Origin: an uncultured Anaeromyxobacteraceae bacterium
Lineage (GTDB): Bacteria; Myxococcota_A; UBA9042; DTJE01
NCBI GenBank assembly: GCA_964573455.1
Contig: CAZNJW010000001.1
Span: 13,096-77,095, forward strand
Reading direction: 5' to 3'
Length of the DNA: 64,000 nucleotides
Position 1 is the stretch's first letter. Each line of letters begins with the position of its first letter. The position numbers were made by a program, and so were the translations under genes. This document shows positions 20,918 through 63,509 of this stretch, one piece after another. Below the pieces are notes generated by a model. The model searched no databases, was not told the DNA's origin, and saw only the letters and a list, made by a program, of their open reading frames with translations.

Positions 20918-22813
20918 TTGCAGGGGCCATCAATGACTCACCCAATACGTAAGGCGGACATTCTGGTCGGCCTGTTGCTGGCGGCGTGCTACTTCGTCAT
21001 GCTGATGTCTACTCTCGACATCGGATTCCCCCGTGACGAGGGGTTCTACTTCAAGGCCGGAGAAGAGTATTCGTACTGGTACGACGACCTCGTGACCAGT
21101 CCGTCCACCGCATTTTCCAAGAAATCCATCAACAAGCATTTCGCCTACAATCCGGAACACCCGGCGCTCCCGAAGATGATGTTCGGGCTTTCCTGGCGGC
21201 TCTTCGGAAAGATGCACGACCCGGTCAAGGAACCGTGGTCGAAGGTCTGGTACCACAAGACCAAGCCGCCGAAACCAATCTTCGGCATCATGTCCGAATC
21301 GACAGCGATGCGCCTGCCGGCGCTCATTCTGAACTCGCTGCTGGTGATGTTCATATTCCTGTTCGGCGTGGAATTCTTCAGCAGACGAGTCGGGTTCGTG
21401 GCCGCCGCCGCATGGATGTTCCTGCCCCATACCTTCTGGCACTCCCACCTGGCGTGCTTCGACATGCCGGTCACCGCGATGTGGTTCCTGGTGGCATGGC
21501 TCTTCCTGAAGGCCACCCCGCCGCTCGAAGAACGCAGGAAGAACCGGGGGCGCACGTGGAAATTCGCGATCGCTGCCGGCGTGGCCTGGGGCCTTTCCAT
21601 GTCGACCAAGCACAATGCCTGGTTTATTCCCGCCGTTTTCGTCATCTGGTACCTCATCGCCCGCTGGGACGAAGTCCTGCCGCGCGATGCGGATGGTCGC
21701 AGAAGGCCGGCCTTCGGCAATATTCCTCCGGCATTCTGGATGATGCTCCTGCTTGGACCACTGGTGTTCTACCTCACGTGGCCCAAGCTGTGGTTCGCCC
21801 CGATCGATCACCTGTCCTTCTATATCGCCCGGCATGCAAAACATGAGTTCTACTGGGCCTACTTCTTCGGTACGCTCCACACGAAGCCGCCGTTCCCGGT
21901 TTCATTTCCGTTCGTCATGTCGGCGATGACCTTGCCAGGGCCGATCGTGCTTTTGTCACTGGCCGGTCTGGGCACGGCGTTCTCGGCATGGATCAAGAGA
22001 CTCCAAGGCAGGGAGTGGAAGATCGCGGTTCCGATTCCCGCAGCCTATCGTGACACCATCCTGTTCGTATTTCTGAATGCGCTCATACCGTTCGCAATCA
22101 TCGCGGCTCCGAACACGCCGATCTTCGGCGGGACGAAGCACTGGCTTCCGGGCGTGGCGTTCCTGATGATTTTCGTCGGAATCGGTTTCGAGCTTGTCGT
22201 CGCGGCCATCGACGGACTTCGCGAGAGATTCAGGCTCCGCTGGGGCAGATCGGCACGGGCCGCCCTCGTGGCGCTTTGTCTTGCGGTCGTGCTGACCCCG
22301 GCGGTGTTCGACACCTTCCACGGCCACACCAACGGCAGCACCTACTACAATGCCTTCTTCGGCGGGTTCGGCGCCATGGGAAGACACGGAATGCAGCGCG
22401 AATTCTGGGGAAACACCGCCTTCTCAGCCCTGCCCTGGCTGAACAGGAATGCACCGAAAAACGCTCAGGTACACTTCCACGACACGGCCTGGGATTCTGT
22501 AAGGATGTACTGGCGAGACGGACTTCTGCGGCGGGACATCAAGCCGCGCTGGGATTATCAGAAGGCCGATTACTTCCTGTTCCACTGGCACAAGGAGTTC
22601 CTCGATCGCGAAGAAACGGGACGCACGGCCATCGGAAGCGACATTCCGGCTTTCGTTGTCGAACAGGACGGAGTGCCGCTGCTGAACGTCTACGAGCGTC
22701 CTCCGCGAAAACCGGCACCGGTCAAGCTTCCTGTCGTCAGACCTGATCGTCCACCCAGGCAGCCGCCTCCCGGAGACCGCGCCAAAGACGCGTCCGGAGG
22801 TAACAACCGATGA
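20918..22813 (+). CDS. Glycosyltransferase family 39 (ArnT/PMT-like) integral membrane protein
   Basis: About 12 TM helices. N-terminal loop motif (DEGFY). Pro-rich C-terminus. Size and topology of a PMT_2/ArnT protein. Confidence 0.6.
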   Translation: MQGPSMTHPIRKADILVGLLLAACYFVMLMSTLDIGFPRDEGFYFKAGEEYSYWYDDLVTSPSTAFSKKSINKHFAYNPEHPALPKMMFGLSWRLFGKMHDPVKEPWSKVWYHKTKPPKPIFGIMSESTAMRLPALILNSLLVMFIFLFGVEFFSRRVGFVAAAAWMFLPHTFWHSHLACFDMPVTAMWFLVAWLFLKATPPLEERRKNRGRTWKFAIAAGVAWGLSMSTKHNAWFIPAVFVIWYLIARWDEVLPRDADGRRRPAFGNIPPAFWMMLLLGPLVFYLTWPKLWFAPIDHLSFYIARHAKHEFYWAYFFGTLHTKPPFPVSFPFVMSAMTLPGPIVLLSLAGLGTAFSAWIKRLQGREWKIAVPIPAAYRDTILFVFLNALIPFAIIAAPNTPIFGGTKHWLPGVAFLMIFVGIGFELVVAAIDGLRERFRLRWGRSARAALVALCLAVVLTPAVFDTFHGHTNGSTYYNAFFGGFGAMGRHGMQREFWGNTAFSALPWLNRNAPKNAQVHFHDTAWDSVRMYWRDGLLRRDIKPRWDYQKADYFLFHWHKEFLDREETGRTAIGSDIPAFVVEQDGVPLLNVYERPPRKPAPVKLPVVRPDRPPRQPPPGDRAKDASGGNNR

Positions 22814-23715
22814 GAAAGACTTCCTGGCTCCTCATATCCATCGGTCTTTTGATTCCGATAGCCTCGCTCGTTTACTTCGGCATGGACCTTTTCTATGTGC
22901 AACGCGCTCCGGACACCACGGACTGGCAGGAAGCGGCACGGGTGGTCCATGAAGGGTGGAAGGAAGGCGATCTTGTCGTGTTCTCCCCCCAGTGGGCTCA
23001 GGGCGCTTCACCATACCTGAAGGGTCTCAAGGTCGACACGGCCGAAAATCCTGACTGGTACGAAGCGTCAAAAGCCAGTCGGATATGGGTCATCGGTTCG
23101 ATGGACGGGTTCGATCCCGAACCGCCCGATGGATGGAAGACATTGTCCGAGACAGCAGGCAGGAAGGTGTCGGTCGAGCTGTGGCAACCACCATCGGGCA
23201 GGGAACTGACATACAGTCTCCTGGACAATATCGATGACGCCGTGGTTTCGCGAATCCATCCGAAACGACGCGAAATCTGCTCGAATCTGAAGGACTCGAG
23301 GTGGTATTGCGGAAAGGTTCACTCGTGGCTCTTCGTAGGCCATTCCAGAAAAGACATCGCCGGCCGGGTAAGGGACGTGATCTGGGCTCACGCCATCGAT
23401 CGCACGGTGGTTGAGGCGGTCTGGCCGAAGGTGCCGGGCGATGGAACCCTCACGGTACGCTGGGGTCTGACGCAACGCGCAGCCGAGGCCGCCGAGGGCA
23501 AGCCGACGAATTTCAAGGTCTTCGTGAAAGGCAAAGTGGTTCTTGAAGACACGCTGGACGTTGACGAACACACGTGGCACACGATTGATATACCTATCAA
23601 GGGTTCTGAACCTTCCGAGGTCAAGTTCCAGATTTCCTCGCCAGACGCGCAATCCAGGCAGGTCTGCTTCACCGCGGATCTCTGGCGCTCGAAAGCCGGC
23701 ACAGACTTTTTATGA
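22810..23715 (+). CDS. Membrane-anchored hypothetical protein coupled to the GT39 gene
   Basis: N-terminal TM helix. ATGA start/stop overlap with the GT39 gene. Confidence 0.4.
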   Translation: MRKTSWLLISIGLLIPIASLVYFGMDLFYVQRAPDTTDWQEAARVVHEGWKEGDLVVFSPQWAQGASPYLKGLKVDTAENPDWYEASKASRIWVIGSMDGFDPEPPDGWKTLSETAGRKVSVELWQPPSGRELTYSLLDNIDDAVVSRIHPKRREICSNLKDSRWYCGKVHSWLFVGHSRKDIAGRVRDVIWAHAIDRTVVEAVWPKVPGDGTLTVRWGLTQRAAEAAEGKPTNFKVFVKGKVVLEDTLDVDEHTWHTIDIPIKGSEPSEVKFQISSPDAQSRQVCFTADLWRSKAGTDFL

Positions 23716-23786
23716 TTCCCGGCGTCGATATCAGCTAGAATCACTGACAGAGCCGTCGGAACACATCAACCGGATGGTGCGCTGAC

Positions 23787-24644
23787 ATGACATACAGAAT
23801 CTTTCTTACGTCGCTGGTCCTCATGTCCGTGCTGACGGTTCTGCCGCCACGCGTCGGAACCGCACGGGACTACACACCTGACACATCTTCATTCTTCAAC
23901 GTCTGCAATGGTGGCGGCGAGTGCACGCCGGGCGTGAACAAGGCGGGATTCTCGGACTACATCACTCAGATGAGTGAAGCACTTGGCCCCGCTTTCATGG
24001 GCCCCGCCAACACACTCGGCTTCAAGGGATTCGAGCTGACGCTTAACACCAGCTTCACCCCCGTTCAAGCCAACAGTGAAGTCTGGACCGGGTACGGCGG
24101 AACCCAGCCCGGCGTGGCCCGAAACCCGGGAACGCTGATGTACGCAAACCAGCTGCGTTTCCGCAAGGGGCTGCCATACAGCATCCAGATCGGCGCCTCG
24201 GTGACGCACCTTTACGAAAGCTCGCTGTGGGGAATCGGACTGGATCTGTCGTGGAGTTTCGTGGAAGGGTTCAAACGGGCGCCGGACGTCGGTCTGGTGG
24301 TTTCGTTCGGAACCGTACTCGGAATGACCGACATACAGACCTTCCAGTTGAACGCGGCCCTTATAGTGTCCAAGTCATTCTCTGTCGCAGGTCTCTTCTC
24401 TTTCGAGCCTTACGTCGCCTATAACATGATGTTCGTGATGGCCGGCACCCACGTCACGTCGCAGTGGTCCCCGGACGGCTACGGCGGACAGTTCGCGATC
24501 GACCCGCAATACATCCTGCGGCACCGCGTCGAAATCGGCATGAACGCCTTGATCGAGAACTTCCTGATCGGCGGTGGCATGACGGTCGATGTGCAATCGG
24601 CCAAGGTCATGGGCGCGATCAAGGTCGGCGTCAGGTTCTGGTGA
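23787..24644 (+). CDS. Secreted putative outer-membrane protein
   Basis: Signal peptide, C-terminal ...KVGVRFW aromatic terminus. Confidence 0.4.
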   Translation: MTYRIFLTSLVLMSVLTVLPPRVGTARDYTPDTSSFFNVCNGGGECTPGVNKAGFSDYITQMSEALGPAFMGPANTLGFKGFELTLNTSFTPVQANSEVWTGYGGTQPGVARNPGTLMYANQLRFRKGLPYSIQIGASVTHLYESSLWGIGLDLSWSFVEGFKRAPDVGLVVSFGTVLGMTDIQTFQLNAALIVSKSFSVAGLFSFEPYVAYNMMFVMAGTHVTSQWSPDGYGGQFAIDPQYILRHRVEIGMNALIENFLIGGGMTVDVQSAKVMGAIKVGVRFW

Positions 24645-24654
24645 CCGATGTGAC

Positions 24655-25962
24655 TCACGGCTCCGGGCGCACGCCCGATTCCCCGTACCTGACCCTGTAC
24701 GACCTCGACAAACCTATGCACGAATCGGAGTGACGACATCCGGAGCAAGCCGGGACGAGTTCATGTCCAAAAAGGTCTGCGCGGCGAAGATCGGCTCTTG
24801 CGTGACTTCTTAAAGCGGAAGGAACCGCGCAAATCGGAAAGTCGGCTATCGACAGGCCTGCTCCGGCGGCAGCCTGTTCCAGCCTGGGACCCGCCGCCTC
24901 AAATGCCGATCTGACCTCCCCGATTTCAGGGGTCACATCGCCAAGAATTTCATCATGCCGGGCGCAATCCGAAATGAGAGATCGAATGGTCACATCAAAA
25001 TCGAAATGAAGCAGCATGTCCAGCACCGAAAACAGTTCAGGCACTGCCCTCCTGGTCATAATGAACTGACCATTCACCCGAAGCGGCAATCTGGAGATAT
25101 TCCGCAAGGCCCGAACCATGCGAACAAAGGCACCCGGCGTTCCCGCGACCGCATCATGAACTTCGGCCGAGGCGCCAAAAACGGACGTCGATATCTTTTG
25201 AACGCCAGGCAGACCCGCGACGGCATCCGCGACCGATGCGCTGGCGAGCCTGCTGGGAGGAATCAAAAGGTGAATCGGACAGCCGCTGGCATCCGAGATT
25301 ACCTGCAATATCGCCCCCAGATGCCTGTGGCCCAAGAGGTCATCCGCATCGAGGCCGAAAGTCGACATCTGACCATGAGCTCTGGCCGGACGAACAATCC
25401 TGTCGGCAAGGCGACAAACCAGATCGAGGTCCCGATCCTGATCAACTGCGTTCCAGATCTGTTTATTAACCGGACAGAAAGCGCAATTCTGGACGCAGCT
25501 CGAAGACAGATTAAGATGAAAAGAGAGGTCGTCACCGCACCCAACCGATGCCAGCATCTCGGATGTGATGTCACCCCCCTGGGAAGCTCTGGACAACGAC
25601 CAGCGCCTTACTGGAGGTTTCGTGCCCGAAAAGCCTGATTCAAACCAGTCAGCCCCGGCGAGCCTCGAGTGGATCGTCTTTTCCAGAGAGTCACAAGCTG
25701 CCACGAACCCCTTGTTTTTCTTCAAAAAGCTACGGATCGGCCAGATTTCAACAAACGGCGCATCATCGCGACATCCATGACCACAGAAGGCGTGCGCCGC
25801 CAGCCCGATCGGGAACATGTGTTCTTCCGATATGACCCGGCCGAACACCTCAATCCCGCAATCCTGCCTCAGGTAAGATTCGGCAATGTACACGCCGGGA
25901 ACAGACAGAAACTGAAGCAGCTCACGCGGAGAAGGAAGCTTGTTCATCGGAGCCTCCGTCAA
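24655..25962 (-). CDS. Radical SAM enzyme of unknown function (435 aa)
   Basis: CVQNCAFCPV (CxxxCxxC) at about residue 175. ~150-aa unique N-terminal domain. C-terminal Cys cluster (CSGCRHSDSC), possibly an auxiliary Fe-S cluster. Last gene of the BMC-P operon. Confidence 0.6.
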   Translation of the reverse strand: MTEAPMNKLPSPRELLQFLSVPGVYIAESYLRQDCGIEVFGRVISEEHMFPIGLAAHAFCGHGCRDDAPFVEIWPIRSFLKKNKGFVAACDSLEKTIHSRLAGADWFESGFSGTKPPVRRWSLSRASQGGDITSEMLASVGCGDDLSFHLNLSSSCVQNCAFCPVNKQIWNAVDQDRDLDLVCRLADRIVRPARAHGQMSTFGLDADDLLGHRHLGAILQVISDASGCPIHLLIPPSRLASASVADAVAGLPGVQKISTSVFGASAEVHDAVAGTPGAFVRMVRALRNISRLPLRVNGQFIMTRRAVPELFSVLDMLLHFDFDVTIRSLISDCARHDEILGDVTPEIGEVRSAFEAAGPRLEQAAAGAGLSIADFPICAVPSALRSHARADLRRADLFGHELVPACSGCRHSDSCIGLSRSYRVRYGESGVRPEP

Positions 25963-25969
25963 GCCCGGG

Positions 25970-27385
25970 TCAGTTTCTGAGGGAGTTCATCGGGGCCGGG
26001 ATACGGCCACCTCGCGCGATGAAGGTGCTTACGTCAAATTTCTTCGTGTCCATGACGATCAGTTCGCCAAGCAACCCGCCCAGATCAACTGTGTCCCCGG
26101 GCTTCGAACCCGGAATCGGGATCAGACGGCAGGCCGTAGTCTTGTGATTGATGACACCAATCGCCAGTTCATCGGCAATTATCGCCGCAATGGTCGAAGG
26201 AGGCGTGTCGCCGGGAAGCGCGACCATGTCCATGCCGACTGAACAGATCGCCGTCATGGCCTCGAGTTTGTCCAGCGTCATGGCGCCAAGCCGGGTCGCG
26301 TCGACCATGCCGGCGTCCTCGCTGATTGGAATGAAGGCGCCTGAAAGCCCGCCAACCGACGACGATGCCATGACGCCTCCCTTCTTGACTGCCTCGGTCA
26401 GAAGATAAAGCGCGGCCGTAGTGCCGTGGGCACCTACACGCTCGATTCCCATCGCTTCTATGATCCTGCCGACCGAATCGCCTTCCGCCGGCGTCGGCGC
26501 CAGCGACAGGTCCAGAACGCCAAAGCGAACCGGCGGACCAAGTCTGGCCACGACTTCGCGACCAATCAGTTCACCGGCACGCGTGATCTTGAAGGCGGTC
26601 CGCTTGATAACCTCGGACAGAGACTGACAGTCCATCAAGCCGGGTTCAAGACGCTTCTGGCGTTCGATGGCCGCAAGCACGACGCCCGGGCCCGATACGC
26701 CGACATTGATGACGACATCGGGTTCACCCACGCCATGCATCGCGCCGGCGATGAAAGGATTATCCTCGGGCGCGTTGGCGAAGACCACCAGTCTGGCACA
26801 TCCGGCGCCGTGCTTTGTCTTGGCGGCCGTCTCGGCCATCACTTCGCCCATCATCGCCGTCGCTTCAAGGTTGATTCCGGTCCTTGAAGACGCCAGATTG
26901 ACCGAGCAGCAAACCCTGGTAGTCGAAGCCAGCACGTCGGGCAAGCTACGCATCAGCATGGCTGAACCTGACGTGGCCCCTTTCTGGACCAGTGCCGAAA
27001 AGCCCGCGATGTAGTCGATCCTGCACTCGACCGCCGCCTTTTCAAGAGCGGCTGCAGCCGCGAGATAGGATTCACGCGGAGCTCCCTCGAGAACCAGCGC
27101 CATCGGGGTGACAGACACGCGCTTGTTCACGATCGGTATGCCGTACATGTTCTCGACCTCGGCGGCCGCGTCGACCAGCCCTCCCGCATGCGAGACGACC
27201 ATGTCGTATATGTACTTGGAGACCGTCTTCGGATCCTTGCCCGGACACCCAAGCATGCAGATGCCCATCGTGACCGTGCGGATATCAAGATGCTCCGCCT
27301 CGACCATTCTTATGGTTTCAGAAATTTCTTCTGGTCGGTAAATCAAGGGTTCCTCCGATCCACCGTAACGGACCGGCCACCGCAT
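25970..27385 (-). CDS. DUF711/UPF0210 family protein
   Basis: Near full-length similarity to UPF0210: [96 protein letters not shown]. Confidence 0.75.
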
Positions 27386-27401: not shown

Positions 27402-28028
27402 TCAGATCCTGTGCATCGCCTTCAGGATGGCCTCGTGCATCACCATCATTTCCGCTCCGACCGCACGTCCTGCCACCTCAACCTTGTTCTTGAACTCCTT
27501 GAACGTCATTCCGCCCTTGAGCGTGTCCAGATTAACCACGAAGATCATCGAGAAGAAGTTCGCAACGATGGTCTGGCTTATATCCTGGATGTCGGTGCCA
27601 CAGTCGGAGATCGCCGACGTCAGCGCTGCGGCGACCCCGGGCTGGTTCCGACCGGTTGCGACCACAATGGCGCGATTCGGCTCACCGGCCTGATGTGCCG
27701 CAATCCTTGCAGCGGCACCATCCTCGGCGAGTGGCGAATACGACGGAATGAAGGAGCCCCCGCGGTCGCCCTGCGAAAGCGCCCGCACAACCTCTTCGGC
27801 AATGACCTTGCGGAGCCGATCATCCGACGGCCCGCGGCTGCCACTGACAGGATCACGCGGGATCGACTCGGCCGATGGAACCGAACCGCTGGCATACACC
27901 AGACGGATCCCCTGTCTGGTCGCGTATTCCCGCGCCAGCGGCGTCACGATCATTCCGGAGTCCACAGCCAGAACGCCCTTCGAAGCGAGCGCATCGACAT
28001 CCTTCTCGGTGATAATCTTCCTGACCAC
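27402..28028 (-). CDS. ACT-domain protein (UPF0237-like) with EutQ-N-terminal-like motif and EP-like amphipathic helix
   Basis: C-terminal 90 aa match UPF0237 (DISQTIV..FSMIFVV...[11 protein letters not shown]). N-terminal [38 protein letters not shown] resembles the EutQ N-terminal motif. The linker contains [17 protein letters not shown]. Confidence 0.6.
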
Positions 28029-28037
28029 ATCAACCTC

Positions 28038-28397
28038 TTATTCTGTCTGACCGGCTATCGCCGATTCATCAACCCTGAAGCGATCGACAATGGCTACGAC
28101 CGACGCGTCGACCGGAAAATGGGGAGCCTCGCCGACTGCAAGGCCCGGTTCAAGCCCGACGCGCCCCGCATGTCCGTAAGCGATAACGACGTCCTCGCCG
28201 GGACCGGCGCCCAGCAGATCAGCCACCACGACGCCATCGGTCAATCCCTGGGGCGGTACGCCGGCGTCCGCGGTCATTCCGTCGGAAGCGCGCAGGTCGT
28301 CAAGGTTGTATGGACGGACCAGCAACAACCGCAGACCTTCCAGTCCCTTCCATTTAACCGAGGACCAGACGCAACCAACGACCCTTGCCATGAACAT
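28038..28397 (-). CDS. Bacterial microcompartment vertex protein (BMC-P, EutN/CcmL/PduN family)
   Basis: ARVVGCVWSSVKWKGLEGLRLLLV, VVVADLLGAGPGEDVVIAYGHAGR and PVDASVVAIVD align to conserved EutN blocks. ~115 aa. Confidence 0.75.
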   Translation of the reverse strand: MFMARVVGCVWSSVKWKGLEGLRLLLVRPYNLDDLRASDGMTADAGVPPQGLTDGVVVADLLGAGPGEDVVIAYGHAGRVGLEPGLAVGEAPHFPVDASVVAIVDRFRVDESAIAGQTE

Positions 28398-28463: not shown

Positions 28464-30209
28464 TCATCGTCTGATGAGTTTAATCGCCCTCTGCAGCAGG
28501 GATTCCTGCTTCCGCTTGAAACTAACCTGCCCGAGGCCGGTGGCGGACTTCGAGCGCTTCTTGAACGATTTGGCGTCCCGGTTGTCAGGATCAAGGGCCA
28601 GCACCTTCCTTATGTGGGACTGCGCCGTCTCAAGATCACTCTTCCTGACCATGTACTCGGCCGCCAGCAGATGCGCCGGGATCAGATCGGGATCGAAACT
28701 GAACGCCACGTCCAGCAGGCTCTCAATGGTCTCGTAGGTGTCGTCCTCGGGTGCCATCGCCAGCAGAGCCATTCCCTGAGAACAGAGATATTCCGGCTCC
28801 TCCTGGTCGAGGTTTTCGGCGGCCTCGAAATATTCAATAGCCTCGGATGGTTTACGTAATTCCAGCAACGAAACGCCCTGACGCCACAGCCCGCGCGCCT
28901 CGAAGATCGCCGCGAGCTGGGCTTCGAGGCCGGGCGTCGAAATACTCTGTGAACGGTTGTAGGCAACACGCAGACTGAGATCACCGAACATCTCACCGAC
29001 TCGATTGATGCGGTCGATCAGCTCGCGAAGGGCCTTCATCGACCTCTGGCTGACTCCGCCTTCGTAACGCGACGGAGAATACCTGCGACGCGCTCGAAGC
29101 TGGGCCATGCGGACTGCCGAAAGCCTGGCATCGGACCCGATCTCGAGCAGATCGTAGTGGTTCAAGCGCGAGGCCCTCTCCAGTTCAGAGACAATGGCCC
29201 TGTCGAGCTCCGGGTCCACCAGTATCTGTTCCGACACGTTGGCCGGTTTGTCCTTTCCGGTACTGGTGAACCCATGGATGGAACCTTTATCGTCCATCAT
29301 CAGGTAATCGTCACGTCGGTCATTTTGCGCGCTGAAGTTGACGTCGGAATCGATATCAAGTTCCAGATCAATGGCTTCGTCGCGGGTCTCGGGGGCCGAA
29401 ACGGCGGCGACGTGAACCGATGCCGGCCCAACGTTGAACTCGTCGAGGTCGATTTCGTCAACCGGCCGTGATACGGTCGAGACGGGTTGTGGGCCTGGTG
29501 TGCCCGCGCCGGAACTGGCCGAAACCAGCCCGCCCGCGACCATGAATCCAAAAAGAATCCTTAGATTGACCTCGTCGGACAGAAGTGCCGGACTCAAAGG
29601 CGGGCAGTTGCCGCTGACAAGCTCGGCAACAAGTGGAACACCGCGAAAATGAGCCCTGGCGTGTATCAGACAACCGGGACTGATCGAATCGGTGACTTTG
29701 GCGAAAGGCCCAAGCCTGCCGACAATCGCGCGCATTCCGGCCAAATCCATGTTTCTCTGAACGGCGGTGAACAGCTCAGCACACATGTCGACCGCCTCGG
29801 TCGGGGAGGCCGGCCCGACATCGGGGGCCTTTTGAAAACGCCAGGCGCGAACAGGTACCGGCAGAAGGATGTCGACGACGTTACGGACATACGAATTCAG
29901 AAGACGGGGTGCGTCCTCATCGCGGACTACGTTGGCCGCAATCAGAAGCGGAAGTGTAGCGATTGAGTCGGCGACTTGACGCTCTTGAACCATGCCGGAC
30001 TGAACAAGGAATTCCCCGAATGAAAGGCCGTCGATGTCGGTTCCAACGTCAACAGCCACGCCACGCTTGTGCAGGAATGTCACTCTACCGTCTGGAAAAT
30101 CAAGACTGAGGCGGCCGGATTCACCTTTCTGCTCGATGGCGCGAAACAGGCGGTAAAGCCCCCAGGCTGGAATCACTCTATCCACGAGGCACCCTCGATG
30201 ACGCCGCAA
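28464..30209 (-). CDS. DUF4388-domain protein with degenerate J-like segment and TPR repeats
   Basis: N-terminal RLSLDFPDGRVTFLHKRGVAVDV (DUF4388-like). HYDLLEIGSDARLSAV J-like region lacking HPD. C-terminal TPR-like helices. Confidence 0.45.
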   Translation of the reverse strand: MRRHRGCLVDRVIPAWGLYRLFRAIEQKGESGRLSLDFPDGRVTFLHKRGVAVDVGTDIDGLSFGEFLVQSGMVQERQVADSIATLPLLIAANVVRDEDAPRLLNSYVRNVVDILLPVPVRAWRFQKAPDVGPASPTEAVDMCAELFTAVQRNMDLAGMRAIVGRLGPFAKVTDSISPGCLIHARAHFRGVPLVAELVSGNCPPLSPALLSDEVNLRILFGFMVAGGLVSASSGAGTPGPQPVSTVSRPVDEIDLDEFNVGPASVHVAAVSAPETRDEAIDLELDIDSDVNFSAQNDRRDDYLMMDDKGSIHGFTSTGKDKPANVSEQILVDPELDRAIVSELERASRLNHYDLLEIGSDARLSAVRMAQLRARRRYSPSRYEGGVSQRSMKALRELIDRINRVGEMFGDLSLRVAYNRSQSISTPGLEAQLAAIFEARGLWRQGVSLLELRKPSEAIEYFEAAENLDQEEPEYLCSQGMALLAMAPEDDTYETIESLLDVAFSFDPDLIPAHLLAAEYMVRKSDLETAQSHIRKVLALDPDNRDAKSFKKRSKSATGLGQVSFKRKQESLLQRAIKLIRR

Positions 30210-30321: not shown

Positions 30322-31086
30322 TCAATAGTATTTTTCCCCGGAATCGATGTCCACGACTATCGCGGAAACGGTCATCTCCGGAACCATCTGAAACGTCTCC
30401 GAAACGGCGACGCCGATCCGGGAAGCCCCGAGCATGGCGCAGATCTTCTCCTGATTGGACAGATCCGGACAGCATCTGTATCCAGGCGAGAAGCGCACGC
30501 ACGGACGAAACCCCTCCTGTCCAGGCGTCAGTCCGCACATGGCCGACGCGACCCTGAGATGAACCTCACCGGCAAACGCCTCCGCCATGGCCGCCGCCAT
30601 CCCGTGAAAAAGATGATAATCCTCGAAACGTCCCTGCTCTCTCAGCTCGGCCTCATGCCTGGCCACGCCATGGCCAAGTGTCGAGACGAACCATCCGGCG
30701 CGACCGGCCGGCGCCATGGTTCCGTCCTCCGGCACGGGAGGAAAGAGATCCGTAAGAGAGTGGCCCTGGTGGTTACGCGCGAAATGAATCAACACGGCAT
30801 CATCGCGGGAATCATTTTCGTCCGGGATCAGAAGGTCGTTATCGATGGAGAATGCGGGGGCGACCATAACCACCGCGGCCGGCTCGAAAATGCCCTCCTG
30901 GCACGCGGAAACCAGCCTGTTCATGAACATCGGTTCCAGTTCGACCTTGATCCGCCTGTTCCATTCGTCCTGATTCACATCGCGGCGCCTGAAACGCCAG
31001 TGCTGCAGAAACAAGGACTTGCGATCGACAAGCCGACCGAGCGCCAGCGGATCGATGTCCGATATCACCATGGCACGCATAGGCAC
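30322..31086 (-). CDS. Methionine synthase reactivation (AdoMet-binding activation) domain, stand-alone ORF
   Basis: RFSPGYRCCPDLSNQEKICAMLG...ETFQMVPEMTVSAIVVDIDSGEKYY matches the MetH activation-domain C-terminus. Only 3 nt downstream of the MetH core. Confidence 0.7.
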   Translation of the reverse strand: MPMRAMVISDIDPLALGRLVDRKSLFLQHWRFRRRDVNQDEWNRRIKVELEPMFMNRLVSACQEGIFEPAAVVMVAPAFSIDNDLLIPDENDSRDDAVLIHFARNHQGHSLTDLFPPVPEDGTMAPAGRAGWFVSTLGHGVARHEAELREQGRFEDYHLFHGMAAAMAEAFAGEVHLRVASAMCGLTPGQEGFRPCVRFSPGYRCCPDLSNQEKICAMLGASRIGVAVSETFQMVPEMTVSAIVVDIDSGEKYY

Positions 31087-31089
31087 ACC

Positions 31090-33651
31090 TCACGATAACG
31101 GACGTTGCCCGTTCACCACCTGATTGAGTGCCCTGAGCCCCTCGAAAGCATCCCTGCAGTAGAAAACCTGACCACTGTAGGACGTGCGAAGCTCACGTTC
31201 GACAAACCCACCGTCGAGAGCCGCGCCTCCAACCAGAACCGGCAGCCTTACTCCAGCGCGCTCCATGACCTGCAGGTTGTCCTTCATCGCCATCGTGGAC
31301 TTCACCAGCAGCCCGGACATCCCGATGGCATCTGCATTCTCGCGCCGCGCCGCCGCCATGATCTCCTCGACCGTCCGTTTGACCCCCAGATTGACCACGC
31401 GAAACCCGTTGTTCGAGACGATTATGTCGACCAGGTTCTTACCAATGTCGTGAACGTCCCCGACAACCGTGGCTAAGACCAGCGTGCCTCTTGGCTCGGT
31501 CCCTGCCGCTGGAAGACGTGGCCGAAGCATGTCGACCGCCGTCTTCATGACCTCGGCGGAGCGCAGGACGAACGGAAGCTGCATCCGCCCGCTGCCGAAC
31601 ATCTCGCCGACCTCACGCATAGCGTCCAGGAGCACGTCGTTGATGATCTGAATGGCATCCATTTCGCCAAGCAGGTTATCAAGTGCCGTATCAAGCCCGA
31701 TCCGATCACCGCGAATCACGGCCCTGCGGCACCGCTGAACGGGGCTGAGGCTGGAAACGTCATCCGCGTTGACGTCCGCGGATGCTCCCACCTCAAACAT
31801 CTCAATGAAGGAGTGAAGGGGATCCCTTCCGCCAGATGAATCATTGTTGACAAGCGCTTCGGCCGCCACGCGCAGTGTCTCCGGGATCGAATCCACGGGC
31901 ATGATGCGACTGGCATTAACGATGGCGGCGCCAAGACCGGCCTTCATGCAGTGATCGAGCATCACGCTGTTGAGAACCCGCCTCGCCCCGGGGTTCAATC
32001 CGTAGGAACAGTTGCTGACGCCAAGGCTGATCCTTACGCCCGGATGCCGGTCACGAATGATTCGAATCGCGTTGATGGTCTCCAGCGCCGAAGTCCTGAG
32101 CGCGGCATCACCGGACGCCATCGTGAATGTCAACGGGTCCACGAAGATGTCGGCGGGGTCGAAACCATGCCGATTCACGAGCAGCCCAATCAGTCGCGAT
32201 GCCACCTCGACCTTGCGTGCCGCTGTCATCGCCATCCCGACCTCGTCGATCGTGAGCGCCACGACCGCGGCGCCATGCCTGCGGGCAATCCCGGCGATCG
32301 CGTCAAGCCTGCTTCCTCCGTCCTCGAGATTCACCGAATTCACGACCGCCCTTCCCGGGCATCTCATCAGCGCGGCTTCGATCGCGGCCGGTTCAGTTGA
32401 GTCCACCATCACGGCCGCGTCCAGGAACCTGGTCGCGACCGGAACGAACCTGACGACATCGGCCGGTTCGTCGCGGCCGGCCACGGCCAGACAGATATCA
32501 AGGACGTGCGCGCCCTCGTCGACCTGTTCACGACCAACCTGAAGCATGGCTTCCACATTCCCGTCGACCAGGTGGTTTCGGAAGGCCCTGCTGCCGTTGG
32601 CGTTCGTTCGTTCGCCAATGATGAGTGGCCCGGGAGTCTGCTCCATGGCAACTGCGGAAAACAACGACGAAAGCATGTCGAGCCTGTTCGGCCGGTTTCG
32701 CGACGGCTCAAGATCGGCCACGGCTTCGGCAAGCGCCCTGATGTGGTCTGGCGATGTGCCGCAGCACCCACCCACAAAAGAAACCCCCAGTTCCGTCACG
32801 AACGACCTTACCTGTGCCGCGAACCCGGCCGGGGTCAACCTGTAGACCAGCCGACCTCCGTCATTCTCCGGAAGGCCGGCGTTCGGAAGGGCCGCCAGAG
32901 GCAGCGGGGATTCGCCGGCAAGCCGCTTCAGCACACCGTACATCGCATCAGGACCGGTCGAACAGTTCAACCCGAATACCGCCACGCCAGGCATTGATGA
33001 CAGTGTAGCGAGCGCCGCTATCACGTCGGTGCCCAGCAGCATCCTCCCGCCACAGTCGACCGTGACCTGCGCGAAGATCGGAACCTCGCGGCCGCTGTCA
33101 TCCATTGCACGGCGAAGACCAAGGACAGCGAGACGGGCCTGAAGCGGATCCTGGCACGTCTCCACCTGGAACATGTCGACACCTCCAGCCAGCAGGGCGG
33201 CGCCCTGCTCATGGTAGGCATCAAGCATCGCTTCGGGCTCGACCTGCCCCAGCGAGGGGAGCCTGGAACCAGGTCCGATCGACCCGGAAACCCAACGCGG
33301 GCGTCCCGGCGCCGATGCGCGATCGGCCGCCTTGCGGGCAATCTCGGCGGCGGCCAGGGACAGTTCGGCCGCGCGGTCGGCAATGCCGTACTCATCAAGC
33401 ACGATCCGGTTGGCACCAAAGGAATTGGTCTCGATGATGTCCGCACCGGCATCCAGGAAGGTACGGTGAATCCCGGCGATCATGTCCGGCCTGGTCAGGC
33501 ACAGCATCTCGTTAAGTCCGTCGACCGGGCCGAAATCAGCGGCCGTGGGAGCCGCCTTCTGGATCTCGGTGCCCATCGCACCGTCGATCACGACGATTCG
33601 CTCACGGGCCGCGGCAAGGATGACACTTGGCAACCGCATCTGGCACCTCAC
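31090..33651 (-). CDS. metH: Cobalamin-dependent methionine synthase core (Hcy-binding, pterin-binding, B12-binding domains), lacking the activation domain
   Basis: 853 aa. Homocysteine S-methyltransferase N-terminus. B12-binding GDVHDIGKNLV (DxHxxG). Confidence 0.85.
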   Translation of the reverse strand: MRCQMRLPSVILAAARERIVVIDGAMGTEIQKAAPTAADFGPVDGLNEMLCLTRPDMIAGIHRTFLDAGADIIETNSFGANRIVLDEYGIADRAAELSLAAAEIARKAADRASAPGRPRWVSGSIGPGSRLPSLGQVEPEAMLDAYHEQGAALLAGGVDMFQVETCQDPLQARLAVLGLRRAMDDSGREVPIFAQVTVDCGGRMLLGTDVIAALATLSSMPGVAVFGLNCSTGPDAMYGVLKRLAGESPLPLAALPNAGLPENDGGRLVYRLTPAGFAAQVRSFVTELGVSFVGGCCGTSPDHIRALAEAVADLEPSRNRPNRLDMLSSLFSAVAMEQTPGPLIIGERTNANGSRAFRNHLVDGNVEAMLQVGREQVDEGAHVLDICLAVAGRDEPADVVRFVPVATRFLDAAVMVDSTEPAAIEAALMRCPGRAVVNSVNLEDGGSRLDAIAGIARRHGAAVVALTIDEVGMAMTAARKVEVASRLIGLLVNRHGFDPADIFVDPLTFTMASGDAALRTSALETINAIRIIRDRHPGVRISLGVSNCSYGLNPGARRVLNSVMLDHCMKAGLGAAIVNASRIMPVDSIPETLRVAAEALVNNDSSGGRDPLHSFIEMFEVGASADVNADDVSSLSPVQRCRRAVIRGDRIGLDTALDNLLGEMDAIQIINDVLLDAMREVGEMFGSGRMQLPFVLRSAEVMKTAVDMLRPRLPAAGTEPRGTLVLATVVGDVHDIGKNLVDIIVSNNGFRVVNLGVKRTVEEIMAAARRENADAIGMSGLLVKSTMAMKDNLQVMERAGVRLPVLVGGAALDGGFVERELRTSYSGQVFYCRDAFEGLRALNQVVNGQRPLS

Positions 33652-61184: not shown

Positions 61185-61198
61185 CGGCCAAAGTGCGG

Positions 61199-61271
61199 CA
61201 GGGCAGGAGGGACTCGAACCCCCAGCATGCGGTTTTGGAGACCGCCGCTCTACCATTAGAGCTACTGCCCT
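61199..61271 (-). tRNA. tRNA-Trp (anticodon CCA)
   Basis: Cloverleaf AGGGCAGTAGCTCTAATGGTAGAGC...CTCCAAAAC...GGTTCGAGTCCC. Canonical position between rpmG and secE. Confidence 0.85.
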
Positions 61272-61361
61272 TTTGAGCACGGCCGAAGGCCCCGGCCACC
61301 CTGGCCATGGTCAGGGCACGAAACCTTCGGCGCGCCCGTTCAAAGATCAACCGACCCGGTC

Positions 61362-61544
61362 CTACTTTACTTCCTTGAAGGTCGTATGCTTGCGCTCGAA
61401 CTTGCAGTACTTGCTGAGCTCGAGGCGGGCCGTGGTCGTCTTCTTGTTCTTGGTCGTCACATACCGCGCGACGCCTGGGATGCCGCTCTTGCGACAGGAC
61501 TGGCATTCAAGCTGGATGTTGATCCTGTTTTCCTTCTTAGCCAT
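61362..61544 (-). CDS. rpmG: 50S ribosomal protein L33
   Basis: MAKKENRINIQLECQSCRKSG... Confidence 0.9.
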   Translation of the reverse strand: MAKKENRINIQLECQSCRKSGIPGVARYVTTKNKKTTTARLELSKYCKFERKHTTFKEVK

Positions 61545-61562
61545 ACGACACGTCCGTTGCAC

Positions 61563-61590
61563 GCGGCCCCCGGGTCGAAGCCCGGGGGCC
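61563..61590 (-). other. GC-rich hairpin between tuf and rpmG (attenuator/partial-terminator-like)
   Basis: GGCCCCCGGG-TCGAAG-CCCGGGGGCC inverted repeat. No clear U-tract. Confidence 0.3.
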
Positions 61591-61606
61591 GGTGCTGCAA
61601 CTCACA

Positions 61607-62797
<1,191 letters not shown>

Positions 62798-62878
62798 GTC
62801 CGTCCCTCCCAGGGTGCGTCAAAACTGAAACATTGATCCGCGCCGTCCGGCGGCACCAGCACTACCGGAACAATCCAG

Positions 62879-62950
62879 AGCCATCGAGCAGAATCGAACT
62901 GCCGACCCCCTCCTTACCAAGGAGGTGCTCTACCCCTGAGCTACGATGGC
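62879..62950 (-). tRNA. tRNA-Thr (anticodon GGT)
   Basis: GCCATCGTAGCTCAGGGGTAGAGC...TTGGTAA...GGTTCGATTCTGC. CCA not encoded. Confidence 0.8.
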
Positions 62951-62990
62951 ACACACGCAAAAACCAAAAGAACAACGGTACGGGCCTACT

Positions 62991-63066
62991 TGGAGCGGGA
63001 AGCGGGACTCGAACCCGTGACCTGAAGCTTGGAAGGCTCCTGCTCTACCAACTGAGCTATTCCCGC
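62991..63066 (-). tRNA. tRNA-Gly (anticodon TCC)
   Basis: GCGGGAATAGCTCAGTTGGTAGAGC...CTTCCAA...GGTTCGAGTCCCGC. CCA encoded. Confidence 0.85.
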
Positions 63067-63122
63067 AGATCTTCCAGATCTGAGACCACAACGTTTCAAA
63101 AAGCGCCCGAACCGGAAACTCG

Positions 63123-63206
63123 GTGGTGGGGGGAGGATTTGAACCTCCGAAGCCGTACGACAACAGATTTACAGTCTGCCCCCTTTGACCACTCGGGAAC
63201 CCCACC
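63123..63206 (-). tRNA. tRNA-Tyr (anticodon GTA), long variable arm
   Basis: GGTGGGGTTCCCGAGTGGTCAAAGGG...CTGTAAATC...variable arm...GGTTCAAATCC. ~84 nt. Confidence 0.85.
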
Positions 63207-63233
63207 GAAAAAAAGTCAATCCGCTCAAAGGAC

Positions 63234-63307
63234 GGAGCTGGCGATGGGACTCGAACCCGCGACCTGCTGATTACAAGTCAGCTGCTCTACCTGTTGAGCT
63301 ACGCCAG
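63234..63307 (-). tRNA. tRNA-Thr (anticodon TGT)
   Basis: GCTGGCGTAGCTCAACAGGTAGAGC...CTTGTAATC...GGTTCGAGTCCCATC. Confidence 0.85.
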
Positions 63308-63509
63308 CAATGCAAAGAACACGCCCATTAAAAGGGCAGGCAATTTTCCACGAGACCGGGGTCTCTGTCAACAGTTATTTGGCCGCAGGCCCGTATTTCC
63401 GCACCAAACCGCCCCTATCCCGGGCGGAATGCGCGGGATTATGCGACAGAACCCCTTTCAGGTCAAGGCCGTTCGGCAATGATTTCTACAGAAACGGTGG
63501 AGAGCTCGT

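Follow-up and report, generated by a model that had tools for sequence, protein, structure and literature searches.

The window examined here is a 64,000-nucleotide stretch from an uncultured Anaeromyxobacteraceae bacterium (assembly GCA_964573455.1, contig CAZNJW010000001.1, positions 13,096 to 77,095), and the subject of this analysis is a gene for a radical S-adenosylmethionine (SAM) enzyme within it, which lies at the end of an operon that also encodes an EutN/CcmL-family protein, an ACT-domain protein and a DUF711 protein. The best explanation of the gene, to which we give a probability of about 0.5, is that it encodes an accessory, self-contained, HxsC-like radical SAM enzyme with two iron-sulphur (Fe-S) clusters, probably acting on a protein or peptide which is not encoded beside the gene, and that in one clade it closes the EutN-ACT-DUF711 operon. 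The EutN-ACT-DUF711 module does not require the enzyme, which need not act on the product of DUF711. An earlier note on this DNA, made without database searches, had described the enzyme as an orphan, and indeed its scores stay below the cut-off of every Pfam and NCBIfam family.

The protein belongs to the radical SAM superfamily, as seen from a CX3CX2C motif with an aromatic residue (F157) just before the third cysteine and from the six beta/alpha units of its structural model. The Pfam Radical_SAM model (PF04055) matched at E=6.5e-6 and 26.9 bits, slightly under the gathering score of 29.5, and spans aa 151-297 when the residues are counted in a longer, 435-aa reading frame. The best NCBIfam match was to HxsC (TIGR03977; E=1.7e-10), at 40.3 bits against a cut-off of 267.9, and HxsC4 (NF038332) gave 38.6 bits against a cut-off of 500. 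The TIGR03977 alignment runs from CX3CX2C through the C-terminal cysteine cluster (aa 146-413 of the 430-aa protein, or 151-418 in the 435-aa frame), and 83 of the 89 aligned relatives match this model at E<1e-5. Comparison with subfamily models, a check which the earlier note had proposed, thus leads to HxsC at a score far below cut-off and to no clear match with a characterised housekeeping subfamily. Structural comparison with Foldseek gave matches to solved radical SAM enzymes at E of about 1e-9, the top structures being SuiB and SkfB (over about 440 columns) and then BlsE and DesII, all with a template modelling (TM) score of about 0.4. When the family profile was searched against the PDB, SkfB was the best match, followed by BlsE and PqqE, all of them confined to the core region, and a single-protein phmmer search of the PDB returned no match. 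As the HxsC model, the structure search and the profile search agree, the enzyme is placed among the SPASM/Twitch-related proteins, as a distant branch of the HxsC-like clade.

On these sequence grounds it is not itself a member of HxsC. In place of HxsB, HxsD and an HxsA with HxS repeats, its neighbours are DUF711, ACT, EutN and an outer-membrane-like protein; no second radical SAM gene occurs within the operon, and among the relatives only a distant group (P0019) pairs with another radical SAM enzyme. Nor was a bona fide HxsC, scoring above cut-off, found among the 10 mid-length relatives in which it was sought. What is shared with the broad HxsC-like clade is a core followed by a C-terminal cysteine cluster containing CxxC. 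The cluster is not that of SPASM proteins, consisting as it does of CX2CX5C and one upstream cysteine only, with serine at the X3 position after C410, and SPASM (PF13186) found no match at E<=10 on the C-terminal 142 aa. Four invariant C-terminal cysteines, which are predicted from the sequence to hold an auxiliary cluster, and the matches to SkfB, BlsE and DesII would fit a Twitch-type enzyme, with a truncated SPASM-like domain and a single auxiliary [4Fe-4S] cluster. Cobalamin binding by the N-terminal domain is not indicated either, since aa 1-142 gave no Pfam match (PF02310) and are modelled as an antiparallel sheet with helices. The domain likewise has no PqqD-like match of the kind expected in maturases of ribosomally synthesised and post-translationally modified peptides (RiPPs) that carry a RiPP recognition element (RRE), no precursor gene is adjacent, and no PflA or NrdG activase model appeared among the NCBIfam matches. 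The earlier note was thus correct in finding neither SPASM nor B12-binding domains, but its view that the protein fits no recognisable subfamily was too strong, because the enzyme is HxsC-like and has an HxsC-type auxiliary cysteine cluster.

The family to which the enzyme belongs is small and fast-evolving. A word-indexed search of 5.8 billion proteins returned only 2 clusters, the enzyme itself and one 89% relative, and the same search with the family alignment (A1) as query added nothing useful, whilst 1.84 billion cluster representatives, searched exhaustively with HMMER, yielded 434 relatives at E<1e-3 and 17 at E<1e-30. We define the family as the approximately 17 sequences of 426-455 aa which share the N-terminal domain; their hosts are Myxococcota and unclassified Deltaproteobacteria known from metagenome-assembled genomes (MAGs).

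The gene is real and, to judge from its sequence and its predicted structure, encodes a functional enzyme of three domains. The open reading frame (ORF) proposed in the earlier note, 24655-25962 on the minus strand, is intact; it begins with TTG, gives the 435-aa version and contains CVQNCAFC, HAFCGHGC and CSGCRHSDSC. The real start lies five codons further in, at an ATG at 25947. This ATG has a Shine-Dalgarno sequence, GGAGG (25953..25957, minus strand, read from the sequence), at the proper distance of 5 nt upstream, within the 22-nt spacer that follows the DUF711 stop codon, and public gene calls for an identical protein and for the 89% relative (P0001 and P0002) are likewise of 430 aa; we therefore take the gene as 24655..25947 on the minus strand (430 aa, stop codon 24655-24657), and residues are numbered accordingly. 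On the other side 10 nt separate the stop codon from the end of a convergent gene. Compared with the 89%-identical orthologue at locus L001, the ratio of nonsynonymous to synonymous substitution rates (dN/dS) is 0.23, which indicates purifying selection. The AlphaFold2 model, built on the 89 relatives, has a mean predicted local distance difference test (pLDDT) score of 94.8 and a predicted TM score of 0.92, and lays out an N-terminal alpha+beta domain, the six beta/alpha units and a C-terminal domain. It could be supposed that the gene is decaying or has no function and is simply carried along behind the operon, as it is the least conserved gene of its block and is missing from some lineages. 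This is extremely improbable given a dN/dS of 0.23, an ORF which is uninterrupted in all of the approximately 20 loci, seven cysteines and several core motifs that are invariant, a strong Shine-Dalgarno sequence and a very confident structure prediction.

The N-terminal domain (aa 1-142; 25522..25947, this and the following features being on the minus strand) is specific to the family. Folded alone by AlphaFold2 (pLDDT 87.2) it forms a four-stranded antiparallel sheet followed by a long helix; no significant match was found among the folds of the PDB (best E 0.058, TM about 0.3), nothing was found in Pfam at E<=10, and comparison by hhalign with the N-terminal extensions of the group of paired radical SAM enzymes gave a probability of 3%. 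The statement in the earlier note that the first 150 or so residues are unrecognisable is thus borne out. The domain is the most variable part of the protein, G36 being its sole invariant residue among 17 sequences, and its isoelectric point is between 4.9 and 6.9 in 13 of the 17; such a mostly acidic or neutral character argues against the binding of nucleic acids. The motif HAFCGHGC (aa 52-59), to which attention had been drawn previously, is present, but only in the two closest sequences and within the least confident loop of the model, and was thus rejected as a metal site of the family.

In the radical SAM core (aa 143-322; 24982..25521), which was delimited from the DSSP assignment of the model, Pfam and the PDB profile search, the strands of the six beta/alpha units lie at 140-146, 195-200, 225-228, 249-256, 290-296 and 318-322. 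CVQNCAFC (25474..25497) supplies C151, C155 and C158, the predicted ligands of the SAM-binding [4Fe-4S] cluster; from sequence and alignment, this CX3CX2C is invariant in 23 family sequences and nearly so in the 89 relatives. It occupies residues 151-158 (156-163 if counted from the TTG) and not about residue 175 as had been reported, and the position is not unusually deep, as approximately half of the HxsC-like relatives begin the motif at residue 120 or later. The C-terminal domain (aa 323-430; 24658..24981), modelled with a pLDDT of 96-98, is predicted from the TIGR03977 alignment to hold an auxiliary Fe-S cluster. CSGCRHSDSC (aa 401-410; 24718..24747), with C401, C404 and C410 arranged as CX2CX5C, was correctly singled out as a C-terminal cysteine cluster; the cluster is wider than was then thought and comprises four invariant cysteines, the fourth being C373 (24829..24831) in the motif DFPxCAVP. 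These four cysteines are invariant in 89 of 89 aligned relatives, and all seven cysteines of the protein named here (C151, C155, C158, C373, C401, C404 and C410) are invariant in the 23 family sequences. The spacing CX2CX5C is the one at the core of the motif for auxiliary clusters in SPASM/Twitch proteins.

By analogy with characterised enzymes of this kind, C151, C155 and C158 would hold a [4Fe-4S] cluster on which SAM is bound and reductively cleaved to a 5'-deoxyadenosyl radical, and this radical would abstract a hydrogen atom from the substrate. C373, C401, C404 and C410 would hold the auxiliary cluster, which may pass electrons or anchor the substrate, and the variable N-terminal domain may help in docking it. 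A protein or peptide is the likeliest substrate, on the analogy of HxsC, SkfB, SuiB and PqqE, and this is the least certain step.

The distribution of the gene among its relatives argues that it is separable from the three genes upstream of it, referred to here as the triad. In about eight lineages, which include all those of one broad clade, the gene begins 9-26 nt behind DUF711; these are the window with its close relatives (L001-3, L020, L032 and L036), L004, L009/L010 together with L023, L011, L018/L033, L019 and L037. The family was found with no triad nearby in at least seven further contexts. In these the relative stands after PilZ (L005/6; L005 9571-11302), alone (L007/8), after cystathionine beta-synthase and gamma-lyase (L012, 5989-10016), inside a nitrogenase-like cluster (P0014), overlapping a gene for a 649-aa radical SAM enzyme (L014-16), after QueG (L030, 2525-4871) or after AspRS and an ABC1/UbiB kinase (L021/L035; L035 50-3705); at L034 no DUF711 lies within 0.9 kb upstream. 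Members of the family do not, then, always adjoin DUF711, which the earlier note had proposed to ask. Of the two findings it had named as contrary to its proposal, one was made, the neighbourhood not being conserved across the family, whereas a clear match to a characterised housekeeping radical SAM subfamily was not found. One MAG carries a second copy (L021), 45.5% identical to the DUF711-linked copy (L019) of the same MAG. Conversely, the triad and its flanking genes for a PMT_2 glycosyltransferase, a 301-aa protein (dn301) and a 285-aa protein (dn285) occur with no radical SAM gene in two lineages (L024-L027 and L028), these being the lineages looked up in genomic context out of 67 clusters of long-form ACT proteins. 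The triad can thus do without the enzyme, and the family likewise is not tied to the triad.

A gene partner common to the contexts lacking DUF711 was sought and none was found. In these contexts family members are again last in a co-directional run before a convergent gene (L030, L035, L012 and L005). Such a last position in unrelated housekeeping operons looks like that of a self-contained, single-gene function which settles where insertion does least harm. Two of the contexts lacking DUF711 are tRNA-related and one belongs to the methionine/SAM cycle, as does the MetH gene upstream in the window, which may be coincidence. At L014 (6919-10196), L015 (5328-9294) and L016 (2303-6527) the gene for the 649-aa radical SAM enzyme overlaps that for a 443-aa HxsC-like protein (P0019) by 4 nt, and at L015 and L016 a further HxsC-like ORF lies just downstream on the opposite strand, a cassette of several radical SAM genes which resembles the HxsB/HxsC pairs. 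In a rough neighbour-joining tree the DUF711-linked copies are interleaved with the other copies; as the branches are long, its topology was not relied on. Loci were also sought with a degenerate DNA pattern (DFPxC..P-24 aa-CxxCx5C), by which 5 true loci were found in genomes, along with 2 chance matches, and 6 true loci in metagenomes, along with 1 unmatched (L031); L017 was scored as a chance match because it had no tblastn match, and at L022 the pattern lies in a non-coding frame and is also due to chance.

A second line of evidence comes from rates of change. The radical SAM gene is the fastest-evolving of its block, with 36-49% identity between loci where DUF711 has 87-98%, ACT 76-87%, EutN 74-93%, the PMT_2 protein 66-82% and dn285 57-79%. 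Between the window and L001 its dN/dS of 0.23 is 10-20 times that of DUF711 (0.014) and ACT (0.026), with EutN at 0.033 and the other genes at 0.06-0.17. Close pairs diverge in proportion, the enzyme being 89% identical where its neighbours are 93-99% and 98% where they are 96-100%, which is a steady fast divergence and not replacement of the gene. The N-terminal domain has a dN/dS of 0.27, and positive selection was rejected as a cause of the fast divergence on a gene-wide basis, the ratio being 0.23 overall with a maximum of 0.40 in aa 71-142. As the putative recognition domain changes fast whilst DUF711, ACT and EutN are almost invariant, the enzyme is a poor candidate for recognising any of these three proteins.

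Several points weigh against the explanation favoured here. BlsE and DesII, Twitch enzymes acting on small molecules, reach scores comparable to those of the peptide maturases, so that the substrate may also be of that class; no precursor-peptide ORF or HxsD-like partner adjoins the gene, whose flanks are 22 nt and 10 nt; the contexts are drawn from approximately 20 loci only, and binning of MAGs could have misassigned the second copy at L021. The adjacency of DUF711 and the enzyme is also old, being kept at the divergent locus L037, where the radical SAM protein is 28%, the PMT_2 protein 57% and DUF711 83% identical to those of the window, and this could reflect a functional link.

The earlier note, which was right to call the gene the terminal one of a co-directional BMC-P/DUF711 operon, had gone on to suggest that its substrate is made or handled by DUF711/ACT. 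In this form the enzyme would be a pathway partner of DUF711 and ACT, its substrate being a small molecule made or handled by DUF711, and might work in association with an EutN pentamer. The spacing of 9-26 nt behind DUF711 throughout one broad clade, a spacer with no promoter- or terminator-like site, and the presence of BlsE and DesII among the best structural matches are all consistent with such a role. A functional tie to DUF711/ACT is possible, but the support for it goes no further than co-transcription in that one clade, and this account is unlikely. The triad occurs with no radical SAM gene, the family occurs in at least seven contexts with no triad nearby and as a second copy in one MAG, and the enzyme exceeds DUF711 and ACT 10-20 times in dN/dS. 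By its score of 654 bits, where the cut-off is 440, DUF711 is here nothing out of the ordinary for its family; it is approximately 60% identical to SP0239 of Streptococcus pneumoniae (2HA9; 491 bits), and no such radical SAM gene is known to adjoin the DUF711/ACT pairs of Firmicutes. Furthermore, the whole region is syntenic, including genes of unrelated function, and adjacency to DUF711 is therefore not specific evidence; operon position hints only faintly at function.

A direct action of the enzyme on a co-encoded protein, as an unconventional activase or maturase, must also be weighed, and DUF711 would be the most interesting candidate for its target. Glycyl radical enzymes (GREs) are normally encoded beside their own radical SAM activase, HxsC-like enzymes act on proteins, and DUF711 has a conserved RGG 13 residues from its C-terminus. 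In ECOD, SP0239 (2HA9) is placed in the ten-stranded barrel superfamily of ribonucleotide reductases (RNRs) and GREs, and in the structure network of Lundin et al. it groups with the GREs, but it has no candidate radical glycine (PMC4390871). The C-terminus of DUF711 (SRGGQIPAP or ARGGRIPAP) does not fit the RVxG[FWY] fingerprint, the radical SAM protein has no similarity to the PflA/NrdG activase models, and its fast-evolving N-terminal domain is ill-suited to recognising a nearly invariant partner. DUF711, which is 87-98% identical among loci whose other genes are 50-80% identical, is equally conserved in the lineages which lack the radical SAM gene; residues that track presence of this gene amount to 12 columns in DUF711, 9 in ACT and 1 in EutN, none of them glycine or cysteine and with only two lineages lacking the gene to compare. 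We regard such an activase or maturase as quite improbable. The sharper version, in which the enzyme of this clade would install a radical or covalent modification on the co-translated DUF711, the only member of the ten-stranded barrel superfamily to which neither a function nor radical chemistry has been assigned, as a new, non-PflA type of activase, possibly on a scaffold of EutN pentamers, is a long shot, and is rated so low because the enzyme is unrelated to PflA/NrdG and because most DUF711 genes have no known radical SAM partner. If true, it would give a first functional handle on the widespread UPF0210/UPF0237 pair.

Some of the contexts lacking DUF711 could point to modification of RNA, for example tRNA: the gene stands right after QueG at L030 and after AspRS-ABC1 at L021/L035, and at L007 the relative adjoins YicC. 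However, both the whole protein and its N-terminal domain are for the most part neutral or acidic, any similarity to RlmN, MiaB or TYW1-type models ends with the common core, the remaining contexts are unrelated to RNA, and a patchy distribution with extra copies and fast evolution would be unusual for a tRNA-modification enzyme. We therefore hold RNA to be a very unlikely substrate, and the self-contained HxsC-like enzyme with a protein or peptide substrate encoded elsewhere remains the preferred explanation.

The co-directional run that ends with the radical SAM gene consists, all on the minus strand, of MetH (31090-33651), a MetH activation domain gene (30322-31086), a DUF4388/TPR protein gene (28464-30209), the BMC-P-like EutN (28038..28397; Pfam EutN_CcmL, 62 bits), ACT (27402..28028), DUF711/UPF0210 (25970..27385; Pfam DUF711, 556 bits; the 654 bits given above are for NCBIfam PRK05313) and the enzyme itself. 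No promoter- or terminator-like site was seen in the spacer after DUF711, and the radical SAM gene is very probably co-transcribed with it. Methionine synthase is split here into an 853-aa MetH (S-methyl_trans, Pterin_bind and B12-binding) and a separate 254-aa Met_synt_B12 protein, and the same split is seen at L001. The ACT protein is of a long form (208 aa), and its PduM/EutQ-like N-terminal stretch of about 45 aa is similar to the C-terminal end of PduM, to the N-terminal end of EutQ and to TIGR02536; within the 67 clusters, long-form proteins of about 190-225 aa are 46-100% identical. A search for genes of BMC-H shell proteins of bacterial microcompartments, with PduA, EutM and a BMC-H of Haliangium as queries, found none in the window or at L001-L016, so that the EutN pentamer may work outside a classical microcompartment.

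The EutN-ACT-DUF711 triad is conserved across many Myxococcota-like contigs. Beside it, in all lineages with or without the radical SAM gene (for example L004, L009, L018, L019, L023, L024, L028 and L037), lies the block of PMT_2 glycosyltransferase (631 aa), dn301 and dn285, which occupies 20918-24644 on the plus strand of the window. Neither the 301-aa nor the 285-aa protein falls in any Pfam family, and the latter starts with a signal peptide and ends in VRFW, as is typical of beta-barrels of the outer membrane. At L009, L028 and L037 a pair of FHA-domain genes has been inserted next to this block. Elsewhere in the window five tRNA genes (Trp-CCA, Thr-GGT, Gly-TCC, Tyr-GTA and Thr-TGT) lie at 61197-63308 on the minus strand.

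The radical SAM superfamily would gain one further subfamily from this enzyme, with a new N-terminal domain, a predicted auxiliary cluster of HxsC type, hosts among poorly studied Myxococcota MAGs and a rate of evolution that is unusually fast for an enzyme. The HxsC-like clade also extends far beyond the His-Xaa-Ser (HXS) cassette and takes in enzymes that stand alone within housekeeping operons, whilst HxsC, its founding member, has only recently been tied to a function, the maturation of an antiphage effector. Were there a functional link behind it, the recurrent site right after DUF711, a barrel of the RNR/GRE superfamily, could open the UPF0210 problem.

Among known systems, the activases PflA and NrdG resemble this enzyme in gene arrangement, being encoded next to a ten-stranded-barrel enzyme as it is encoded right behind a member of the RNR/PFL barrel superfamily; they have no sequence kinship with it beyond the superfamily, and their CX3CX2C is N-terminal where that of the present enzyme lies deep. 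BlsE and DesII, which act on small molecules, show a comparable similarity of the core and a single C-terminal extension of auxiliary-cluster type, but identity is 18-20% and restricted to the core, the match to the NCBIfam BlsE model reaches 14.7 bits where the cut-off is 400, and there is no sugar-nucleotide biosynthetic context. SuiB and SkfB, the top Foldseek matches, are RiPP maturases in which an N-terminal domain for peptide recognition precedes the core and a SPASM/Twitch domain, a layout in three parts which the present enzyme shares, and SkfB is also the best profile match in the PDB, over the HD..G..GxF region. Here TM is only about 0.4 and identity 10-13%; the present enzyme has four C-terminal cysteines against seven in SPASM maturases and no Pfam SPASM match, and, in contrast to RiPP maturases, an N-terminal domain which matches no solved RRE/PqqD-type domain and no gene for a precursor peptide. 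HxsC itself is described in a 2026 paper (PMC13128918) as a radical SAM enzyme with CX3CX2C at about residue 101-108, where C105/C108 mark the first of its clusters; the second is at C342/C345, a CxxC some 234 residues past the SAM cluster. With HxsB and a small protein, HxsD, as partners it is reported to mature HxsA, a protein effector. Unlike HxsC in the four-gene HXS antiphage cassette, the present enzyme has no HxsB, HxsD or HxS-repeat HxsA nearby, gave no match in a PADLOC scan for defence-system links, carries a family-specific N-terminal domain and resides in housekeeping operons. HxsC is nonetheless the best-scoring curated family and aligns from CX3CX2C to the C-terminal cysteine cluster; both proteins have an extension before the SAM cluster, of about 100 aa in HxsC and about 150 aa here, and the C-terminal CxxC, the second Fe-S site of HxsC and the predicted one of this enzyme, follows the SAM cluster by 234 residues in the former and by 243 in the latter.

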